Positions 36,139-38,009 are shown, counted from the first letter of the stretch. The stretch: DNA of 64,000 nucleotides from Clostridia bacterium (GCA_022796855.1 JAAWJM010000001.1:42242-106241); one strand, 5' to 3'. A program made the numbers and translations. Notes: generated from the letters alone by a model not told the origin.

Positions 36139-37386
36139 ATGATTACAAATTTAAAAATAACCAATTGCTATACCTTTAATAAAACAGTAGAATTTTCCAT
36201 GAAAGCTGATATGCGAACGAAAAGGTTTTATACAAATATTTACCAAGGAGAAAATAACGAAAATATATTAAAGTCATCAGTTATCTATGGACCTAACAAT
36301 ACAGGAAAAACATCTTTTGTAAATTGTATAAAAGACATAAAAAATGTCTTGCTGAATAAAAAAGCACATGTTTCAAGGGATATATTTAGTAATTATAAAA
36401 TATGTGAATTAGAAGTTTCATTTTTACAAAAAGGAGAAGAATATCAATATATATTTAATTATGACTCCGACAAAGAAGAATATGTTTATGAGAAATTTTC
36501 AAAAATTACACAAGGGAAAGAAAATGTTTATTATATAAAAGATACAAAAAATGAGGAATATAAGTGCAGTAGAGATAAAGATTTAGCATATATTTTAGCA
36601 ATTTCATCGAAAAATAATATTTTGATTTACACGATAGAAACCGAACAATTTCCAATTTTGAAAGAAGTAAAAGAAATTTTAGTATCTTTTGCAAATAATA
36701 TTGATATTATTGATATGAACCATATACCTAATAGCAAAACAATTCAATTTTTAAAAAACAAAAATAATATGACGAAAAAAGTAGTAGAATTTATTAAAAA
36801 TGCGGATTTGTATTTGGAAAATTATGCATATGATGATAAAGTGAAATTTAATATTGCAGCAAGTGATGAAAAAATAACAGAATTGGTAAATGAAAAACTA
36901 TTAAAAAACCAAAGCTTTATGGAACAAATAAAATTGGTTTCCTTTTATAAAGGAAAAGCAGTTCCTAGTATGTTATTTGATTCTGTTGGTACAAAAAAAA
37001 TAGTGGCATTAGCAAGTTATGTATTAGATGCAATTGAAAATGACAGAGTGTTAGTTGTAGATGAATTAGACAGTAGTCTACACTTTAAAATAACTAGAGC
37101 AATTATTGGATTATTTAATAATGAAAAAAATAGAAAAGGACAATTGATTTGTACATTGCATGATGTTACGTTATTAGACTGTAAAAAGATGTTTCGAAAA
37201 GAACAAATATATTTTACAGCAAAAGATGAAAAACAAACATATTTGTATTCGTTAAGGGAATTTACGTATAATAAAGAAGGAATAAGAACAGATACAGCAG
37301 ACATGTTAGAAAAGTATGAAAAGGGCATATTTGGAGCAATACCTGAACCTGATTTAATTTCTTGCTTACTAAAGGAGGAAAAATGA
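36139..37386 (+). CDS. ABC-type AAA_21/AAA_15 ATPase (RloA / AbiLi / AriA-like).
   Basis: Walker A YGPNNTGKTSF, signature-like DSVGTKK, Walker B VLVVDELDSSLH and an H-loop CTLHD. The stop overlaps the downstream start (ATGA). Confidence 0.7.
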   Translation: MITNLKITNCYTFNKTVEFSMKADMRTKRFYTNIYQGENNENILKSSVIYGPNNTGKTSFVNCIKDIKNVLLNKKAHVSRDIFSNYKICELEVSFLQKGEEYQYIFNYDSDKEEYVYEKFSKITQGKENVYYIKDTKNEEYKCSRDKDLAYILAISSKNNILIYTIETEQFPILKEVKEILVSFANNIDIIDMNHIPNSKTIQFLKNKNNMTKKVVEFIKNADLYLENYAYDDKVKFNIAASDEKITELVNEKLLKNQSFMEQIKLVSFYKGKAVPSMLFDSVGTKKIVALASYVLDAIENDRVLVVDELDSSLHFKITRAIIGLFNNEKNRKGQLICTLHDVTLLDCKKMFRKEQIYFTAKDEKQTYLYSLREFTYNKEGIRTDTADMLEKYEKGIFGAIPEPDLISCLLKEEK

Positions 37387-38009
37387 TAGGATTACCGATT
37401 GAATATAAGGAAAATAGAAGAATATGCATTGTTTGTGAAGGATATGAAGAAAAAGAATATGTAGATAAATTAAATAGCAAAGCAATTTTTTCGGAAAAAT
37501 ATGAAATACTGCCAATAAATGCAAAAGGAATAAGTAATGTGTTTCCAGTGTATCAAGAAAAGTATCAGTCCAATTCATATCATCTTGTTCTAATGTTTTG
37601 CGATACAGATAAAGTATCAAGAAGTGAGTATTTAAACATAAAGAAAAAGATTAATGAACAATATGATAATGATGTGGCAGATGACCTTATTATATTTGGT
37701 AATCCGACAACTATGCAAATTATATTAAGCCATTTTAGAAAAGTAGAAATAACGAGTCAAGCAAAAGGAAGCAATAGGCAATTGATTGAACAATTAACAG
37801 GAATTGAAAATTATGATGCAAAAGATGAGCAAATTAAAGACTTGATGCAAAAAATTAACCGAAAAAATTATGAAACTATGAAACAAAATTTAAGAGACAT
37901 CTCGACAGATGATACTCAAAAACCAAGCACTAACATTTTAAAGTTTTTAGATAACCTTGAAAATGACAATACAAGTTGGATTGACGAAATCAATAAGAAG
38001 TTAGTTTGA
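37383..38009 (+). CDS. RloB-like / DUF4435-type TOPRIM (OLD-family) nuclease-like protein.
   Basis: N-terminal RICIVCEGYEEKEYV provides the conserved TOPRIM Glu. A DxD motif follows in LVLMFCDTDKV. Translationally coupled to the ATPase. Confidence 0.6.
   Translation: MIGLPIEYKENRRICIVCEGYEEKEYVDKLNSKAIFSEKYEILPINAKGISNVFPVYQEKYQSNSYHLVLMFCDTDKVSRSEYLNIKKKINEQYDNDVADDLIIFGNPTTMQIILSHFRKVEITSQAKGSNRQLIEQLTGIENYDAKDEQIKDLMQKINRKNYETMKQNLRDISTDDTQKPSTNILKFLDNLENDNTSWIDEINKKLV

Follow-up and report, generated by a model that had tools for sequence, protein, structure and literature searches.

Two overlapping genes on one strand of a 64,000-nt stretch of DNA from a Clostridia bacterium (GCA_022796855.1 JAAWJM010000001.1:42242-106241; hereafter the window) raise the question whether they form an anti-phage defence system and, if so, of which kind. 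A preliminary description had read them as an ABC-type ATPase translationally coupled to an RloB-like Toprim protein and had likened the pair to AbiL, PARIS and RloA/RloB.

Both reading frames lie where that description had placed them (Table 1), and ORF calls confirmed their sizes, 415 and 208 aa, as well as the 4-base ATGA at positions 37383-37386 through which they overlap. The ATPase frame runs from ATG 36139 to a stop codon at 37384-37386 and is preceded, six bases 5', by a GGGGG Shine-Dalgarno run (36128-36132); an alternative in-frame ATG at 36106 would give a 426-aa product and comes without a ribosome-binding site (RBS). The ATG of the small gene at 37383 has an AGGAGG (37373-37378) five bases 5' of it. 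These are two separate ORFs, each with its own RBS, and the same 415-aa and 208-aa products also appear in independent gene calls from six other assemblies of the same organism.

Table 1. The gene pair and features around it; positions are counted from the first letter of the window.
Feature	Position	Strand	Basis
Four ~48-nt repeat copies with AAAAGTGGTAT core	32114-32291		
AAA_14 + DUF4143 ATPase gene	32322-33626		
Big_2 protein gene	33794-34582		
Upstream two-gene cassette, 295-aa ORF	34597-35484		
Upstream two-gene cassette, 185-aa ORF	35488-36045		
Intergenic palindrome/hairpin between upstream cassette and ATPase gene	36059-36108	+	inverted repeat, RNA fold
17-mer AAAAAACTTG[C/A]ATAAAA, copy before ATPase gene	36079-36095		
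abiLi-like gene, 415-aa Rad50/SMC-type ABC ATPase (AAA_21)	36139-37386	+	
Translational-coupling junction: AGGAGG RBS inside ATPase gene plus ATGA overlap	37373-37386	+	sequence
abiLii-like gene, 208-aa single-domain RloB-type Toprim protein, predicted nuclease effector	37383-38009	+	
26-bp-stem hairpin, 30 nt past small-gene stop	38039-38099	+	inverted repeat 96% complementary, RNA fold
Same 17-mer, copy before VanZ gene	38139-38155		
Priming sugar transferase (Bac_transf) gene	38696-39455		
Next glycosyltransferase gene	39458-40730		

The nucleotide-binding motifs ascribed to the ATPase are all intact, comprising a Walker A (GPNNTGKT, residues 51-58), a signature (DSVGTKK, 281-287), a Walker B (VLVVDELD, 304-311) and an H-loop (CTLHD, 338-342), and they are at least 90% conserved among 77 homologues from other species. 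The protein also carries a helical insertion of ~120 aa (roughly residues 145-265), for which model confidence is lower. It matches Pfam AAA_21 at 8.1e-26 and, over residues 1-405, the PADLOC AbiLi model (PDLC02335) at 4.5e-62 (208 bits); the next PADLOC models are far weaker (generic AriA/AAA_21, 2.8e-27; HEC-01A, 4e-9), all of these matches being judged by E-value and not by PADLOC's per-model cut-offs. NCBIfam transporter models reach 12-18 bits against cut-offs of about 195-265. The predicted structure resembles Rad50/SMC heads, Rad50 most closely, and lies nearer to Rad50, SMC, PtuA and retron ATPases than to AriA. Given the AbiLi and AAA_21 scores and the sub-cut-off transporter scores, the protein is therefore best classed as a Rad50/SMC-type ABC ATPase of the defence-associated AAA_15/21 group and not as a transporter subunit. 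Membership in a housekeeping ABC system, which the preliminary description had said would speak against its reading, found no support, and we rejected a housekeeping transporter ATPase on its sub-cut-off scores and the absence of permease or solute-binding genes within 8 kb.

The small protein likewise carries the motifs pointed out earlier, namely CIVCEG with its Glu (E19) and FCDTD with its DxD (D74, D76). E19 and D74 are invariant in 44 homologues, while the members shown have Asp or Glu at position 76. Pfam returned no match for the protein, RloB (PF13707) being absent even at E-values up to 10, and NCBIfam and PHROGs gave nothing useful. Taken literally, this is the outcome that the preliminary description had named as evidence against a Toprim partner, a small ORF without an RloB or TOPRIM HMM match; we nevertheless retain the assignment because of the AbiLii match, the relatives of the protein, a profile comparison and the predicted fold. 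That is, the PADLOC AbiLii model (PDLC02337) matches residues 10-184 at 6.6e-8, and 43 of the 44 family members match it as well (best, 9.7e-12). Relatives that are 61-62% identical score 34.8 and 36.0 bits, above the Pfam RloB gathering threshold of 31.5 bits, in alignments that span profile positions 1-194 of 195; Pfam RloB is found at E 0.01 or better in 14/44 relatives, and a few match OLD-like_TOPRIM or Spo11 Toprim. Using HHalign, the family profile aligned with nine annotated RloB proteins over 180 columns (96% probability, E 2.7e-9), a result that is significant only against the RloB alignment, comparison with a single RloB sequence being uninformative. With relatives passing the RloB model and this HHalign result, the small protein is therefore a full-length RloB homologue beyond the reach of the Pfam model, so that the earlier RloB assignment holds for the family although not for a direct match of the protein itself. 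In the PDB, no meaningful sequence match emerged for the protein, the family profile or a canonical RloB profile, and tblastn of the small protein against plasmid and phage collections gave none.

Toprim domains are described (Aravind 1998, as summarised in PMC6755086) as a four-stranded parallel sheet with flanking helices, a conserved Glu lying in the loop by strand 1 and the DxD after strand 3. An AlphaFold model of the small protein (pLDDT 92.7) shows four strands alternating with helices, puts E19 immediately behind strand 1 and D74-x-D76 where strand 3 ends, and is closest to the OLD and GajA Toprim nucleases. The protein is thus predicted to adopt a Toprim fold with its metal-binding Glu and DxD. 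Genome annotation by Pfam alone leaves such an effector as a "hypothetical protein."

The small protein had been called unusually short for a Toprim partner, a point that does not stand. Annotated RloB proteins on plasmids of Clostridium, Psychrobacter, Edwardsiella, Escherichia, Klebsiella, Peteryoungia, Phocaeicola, Rhodococcus and Geminocystis have 185-251 aa, and in 8/9 of these cases an ATP-binding protein gene is annotated directly 5' of the RloB gene. Members of 203-204 aa span the Pfam RloB model end to end, full-length members of the clade to which the small protein belongs measure ~198-222 aa across 547 clusters at 50% identity, and the AbiL-type pair of the Lactococcus prophage proPhi7 has 410 + 192 aa. 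Judged by these homologues, the architecture and sizes seen here are the norm for such systems.

Which of the three systems named at the outset does the pair resemble? The likeness to AbiL (Lactococcus lactis pND861; ORF55/ORF56 of prophage proPhi7) held up best. The gene order is the same, an ATPase of ~410-460 aa followed by a Toprim/RloB protein of ~190-250 aa; the frames usually overlap or abut, here as in the lactococcal pairs; and a Rad50-like ATPase and an OLD-like Toprim fold are common to both (PMC13064643). The locus combines an AbiLi match, an AbiLii match and an adjacent same-strand operon, the three features by which PADLOC recognises AbiL, with E-values weaker than those of proPhi7 for both AbiLi (4.5e-62 versus 4.4e-76) and AbiLii (6.6e-8 versus 4.7e-18). 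The ATPase is, however, only ~27% identical to that of the lactococcal prophage, and the small protein departs from canonical RloB in two motifs that are taken up below. PARIS fits less well on the effector side: the effector here is RloB-type, with no match to DUF4435 (PF14491) or AriB in Pfam or PADLOC, and has 208 aa (~24 kDa) against ~35 kDa, while the AbiLi model fits the ATPase far better than the AriA models do. For RloA/RloB, the architecture agrees and the restriction link does not. The RloA/RloB and plasmid "ATP-binding protein + RloB" pairs place RloB proteins of 185-251 aa after ATPases of 390-450 aa in six bacterial phyla, and the RloB family and the clade are homologous over their full length; in contrast, no restriction-modification genes adjoin the pair here, and the clade, in its best 80 loci, comes mostly from gut Clostridia and Bacilli. 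A fused OLD protein of class 1 or 2 (P2 or Thermus Old; GajA) was rejected, as OLD and GajA join in one polypeptide the domains that are encoded here by two separate ORFs, and no helicase lies within 8 kb, such as the GajB/UvrD partner of Gabija.

As a separate observation, the E. coli plasmid pMTY1881_NA3 (1301-3041) encodes an AbiLi-type ATPase (PADLOC 7.3e-72) followed by a 145-aa non-RloB protein. This 145-aa partner, found on small ColE1-type plasmids, has no Pfam match and only a marginal match to NsnC; its occurrence suggests that effectors other than RloB can also partner AbiLi-type ATPases.

A scan of one genome per species found a relative encoded at 286 loci, the best 80 of which come mostly from gut Clostridia and Bacilli, including Ruminococcus flavefaciens, Eubacterium, Lachnospiraceae, Roseburia, Holdemanella and Christensenella. 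In all 80 of these best loci, from other species, an ATPase homologue (41-60% identity) lies immediately 5' on the same strand, and across related loci the ATPase and the small protein are correlated in their identity levels (r = 0.73), as befits strict co-inheritance. By a heuristic choice of start codon, the estimated overlap of the small gene with the ATPase stop is 4-35 nt, for the most part 8-14 nt, at 73 of the 79 loci scored. A conserved third gene was sought in the 80 loci and rejected as part of the system, none being common to them. With an upstream ATPase in 80/80 loci and no conserved third gene, the unit is therefore a self-contained two-gene module. Metagenome contexts agree with the ATPase linkage, and in one of them the pair adjoins JetC/JetD. 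Across genomes the distribution is patchy and often accompanied by mobile-element genes: the commonest neighbours are a tyrosine integrase (10/80), a large serine recombinase (7/80) and TnpV (5/80), and about a quarter of related loci, a minority, adjoin integrases, recombinases or TnpV. The clade, present in at least 286 species genomes, mostly of gut Firmicutes, is a divergent but very common AbiL subfamily.

At the locus itself, the pair is bracketed by hairpins. The one upstream of the ATPase gene (RNA fold dG -15.6 kcal/mol, z -4.9) could serve the upstream cassette as terminator, act as an operator, or combine the two roles. Overlapping it is a weak promoter-like pair, TTGCAT (36086-36091) and TATACT (36110-36115) spaced by 18 nt, which could be read as a promoter of the ATPase gene; a consensus scan for promoters and terminators, which did no better than shuffles in this AT-rich DNA, did not list the site. 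The downstream hairpin is far more stable (dG -39.8 kcal/mol, z -9.5; 0/200 shuffles as stable) and is the probable transcription terminator of the two-gene operon, although it has no clean T-run; the consensus scan missed it because its stem is AT-rich and a T-run is lacking. The same 17-mer, AAAAAACTTG[C/A]ATAAAA, occurs before both the ATPase and the VanZ gene, the second copy overlapping a scanned TTGAAT-17-TATTAT site, and may represent a common promoter -35/UP region of the two genes. Direct repeats flanking the pair, sought as a mark of insertion, amounted to short chance-level matches plus this shared 17-mer. Rfam gave no match at 32-39 kb of the window. Nor did an identical VanZ gene lead us to an empty-site allele: of 10 contigs carrying it, all nine that reach the site contain the pair, and the tenth ends just upstream of the site.

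The setting had been described as an AT-rich islet beside other defence-like genes. The pair does have a lower GC content than the window (26.0% versus 30.5%), but this value ranks only at the 12th percentile among windows of equal size, and the neighbouring polysaccharide locus matches it in AT-richness. The description of the neighbours was correct, with exchangeable defence cassettes directly upstream. The nearest is a cassette of 295- and 185-aa proteins, the latter with four hydrophobic segments, which has no Pfam, PADLOC or NCBIfam match and matches only PHROGs of unassigned function (phrog_4672, 1.8e-9; phrog_4613, 2.7e-13). In another strain this cassette (window 34577-36055) is precisely replaced by a 748-aa gene matching PADLOC PDC-S46 at 2e-199, while the adjoining AbiL pair stays 99.7% identical; the recombination breakpoint between the strains falls at 36056, just before the upstream hairpin. 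Elsewhere the 295+185 pair turns up again next to a Bpu10I-type R-M system, SLFN/AlbA_2, RelB/YafQ or a phage integrase, and it is plausibly an uncharacterised defence system. Within 8 kb of the AbiL pair we found no hsd, methylase, restriction, permease, solute-binding or helicase genes; the pair is chromosomal here, with no recombinase adjacent.

Several further observations concern the flanks. The AAA_14 + DUF4143 ATPase gene matches PADLOC PDC-S01 in two halves (2.6e-65 and 3e-80), being split into two ORFs here and in several assemblies, whereas it is intact (431 aa) in other strains; in this strain it is probably a pseudogene. Just 5' of it, the four ~48-nt repeat copies alternate in spacing between 33 and 64 nt and look like iterated, putative binding sites. 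The Big_2 protein is secreted or membrane-anchored, has a low-complexity linker rich in Thr, Ser, Asn and Lys, and matches phage Ig-domain structural families (phrog_215, 2.8e-24); in the PDC-S46 strain it is only 87% identical, compared with the 99.7% of the AbiL pair. Downstream of the pair follow VanZ and then a strain-variable polysaccharide locus, which differs between strains beyond ~39462 (38746 in one strain). Its priming sugar transferase (Bac_transf) and next glycosyltransferase genes each appear as two ORFs here, Bac_transf being intact (229 aa) in one related strain.

On homology and context together, we consider it probable that the two genes form a self-contained operon for anti-phage defence, belonging to the AbiL family, in which an AbiLi-type ATPase would act with an RloB-type (AbiLii-type) Toprim nuclease. 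Lactococcal AbiL, an abortive-infection system of two genes, is grouped with PARIS (PMC13064643, PMC11464382); a 2026 review, which groups it with PARIS and RloAB, states its mechanism as unknown, and although AbiL has been reported since 1999, what triggers it, what it targets and how it assembles have yet to be described (PMC13064643). In PARIS, the ATPase AriA forms an assembly with the Toprim nuclease AriB, and a phage protein triggers the release of AriB, leading to cleavage of host tRNA (PMC11464382, PMC13064643). By analogy, coupled translation would supply the two proteins of our pair in fixed proportion, and the ATPase may oligomerise and keep the nuclease inactive. A phage-derived cue, perhaps sensed through the variable helical insertion of the ATPase, together with ATP binding or hydrolysis would then free or activate the nuclease, which might cut RNA (host tRNA or another RNA, as PARIS does) or, like OLD and Gabija, DNA. 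Such cleavage would halt phage growth while sacrificing the infected cell, that is, by abortive infection. We propose this PARIS-like mode, with its assembly, trigger, target and phenotype, because of PARIS itself, of the NetFlax AAA/TOPRIM_OLD pairs, two of which, from Firmicutes, have AAA proteins that neutralise TOPRIM_OLD toxins (PMC10440598), and of the toxicity of Fusobacterium nucleatum AbiLii in E. coli (PMC3985639). In that last, single published test, AbiLi supplied in trans did not neutralise AbiLii (PMC3985639), and simple sequestration is therefore a poor fit.

The toxicity of F. nucleatum AbiLii and the toxin-antitoxin behaviour of the AAA/TOPRIM_OLD pairs might also be taken to mean that the pair is mainly an addiction module, in which a Toprim toxin and an ATPase antitoxin stabilise mobile elements or islands and phage defence is incidental or absent. 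Related ATPase + RloB pairs are indeed almost the sole cargo of ColE1-type plasmids of 3.9-5.2 kb, and the integrases, recombinases and TnpV beside about a quarter of related loci point the same way. We nevertheless think it unlikely that this is the main role: the prototype AbiL, as far as the citation in PMC13064643 conveys (Deng 1999), confers phage resistance, and the pair studied here sits on the chromosome among defence cassettes without an adjacent recombinase. Addiction and defence are, in any case, not mutually exclusive roles.

At certain residues the clade departs from its relatives. A joint alignment of 10 annotated RloB/AbiLii proteins yielded canonical motifs that are a working set derived here, not a published definition: all 10, the lactococcal one included, share EG..TE, DxD/E, NPCFExW..LH and YxK. 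Of these the clade retains EG, the second Glu (E23), DxD, NP and the His of LxH, whereas it reads NP[CT]TMQI in place of NPCFExW (Glu to M111, Trp to I113) and YxA (Y144-x-A146) in place of YxK (Lys to A146). M111 and A146 are invariant in 44/44 clade members, and Q112, K128 and N131 are clade-specific invariants. The failure of Pfam RloB to match the small protein can be put down to these motif changes. Because the invariant Glu and Lys have become Met and Ala, the catalytic centre of the clade may not work as in canonical RloB. Going by position rather than superposition, the lost Glu (M111), which sits where the first helix after strand 4 begins, would be the counterpart of E508 in Burkholderia (Bp) OLD, a ligand of the second metal (metal B; PMC6755086). 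By the same kind of positional comparison, A146 (or K128) would be the equivalent of K562 of that enzyme.

These replacements could indicate a Toprim protein that is catalytically altered or inactive and serves as a nucleic-acid-binding or scaffolding partner, or acts as a nickase or RNase with another mechanism. Against this, E19 and D74 are invariant and position 76 remains acidic in the members shown, E23 aligns with the second Glu conserved in canonical RloB, and the clade-invariant polar residues Q112, K128 and N131 adjoin the lost ones and could substitute for them; moreover, an E508A change alone did not abolish cleavage by Bp OLD (PMC6755086), and the strong conservation seen over 547 clusters points to an active site under constraint. 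An altered or inactive Toprim protein thus strikes us as distinctly unlikely. A milder version, in which the clade is a functionally distinct AbiL variant whose second half of the Toprim active site has been rebuilt around M111/A146 with Q112, K128 and N131, is put forward tentatively and is on balance rather doubtful; if true, the rebuilt site could give a catalytic mode or substrate other than that of canonical RloB/AbiLii. The pair had been introduced as a distinct and possibly uncharacterised variant. In kind it is a known one, AbiL, and what stands of that claim is its membership in a divergent clade, the case for novelty resting only on the two altered conserved residues of the effector.

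That the pair is instead a restriction-linked RloA/RloB serving a type I R-M system, or a housekeeping ABC or DNA-repair ATPase system, is highly improbable: RloB was named, according to the papers citing the original work (PMC13064643, PMC10440598), from ORFs inside Campylobacter type I R-M loci, and the ATPase model is most like Rad50, but the surrounding 8 kb hold none of the restriction or transporter genes sought, the transporter scores are far below cut-off, no R-M or transporter partner is conserved in the 80 loci, there is no Mre11-like partner, and the distribution is patchy and often beside mobile-element genes.

As an AbiL-family defence operon, the pair would for the most part be what one expects to find in a defence islet, a gene pair of known AbiL kind, here in a gut Clostridia genome. 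Its subfamily is compact (415 + 208 aa) and well conserved, offers a high-confidence effector model and has hundreds of variants in gut Firmicutes of humans and animals, and it could therefore be a handy model for how an ATPase and an RloB protein act together. It could also tell whether the PARIS mechanism holds more generally, with the altered invariant residues of the effector providing ready-made mutational tests.
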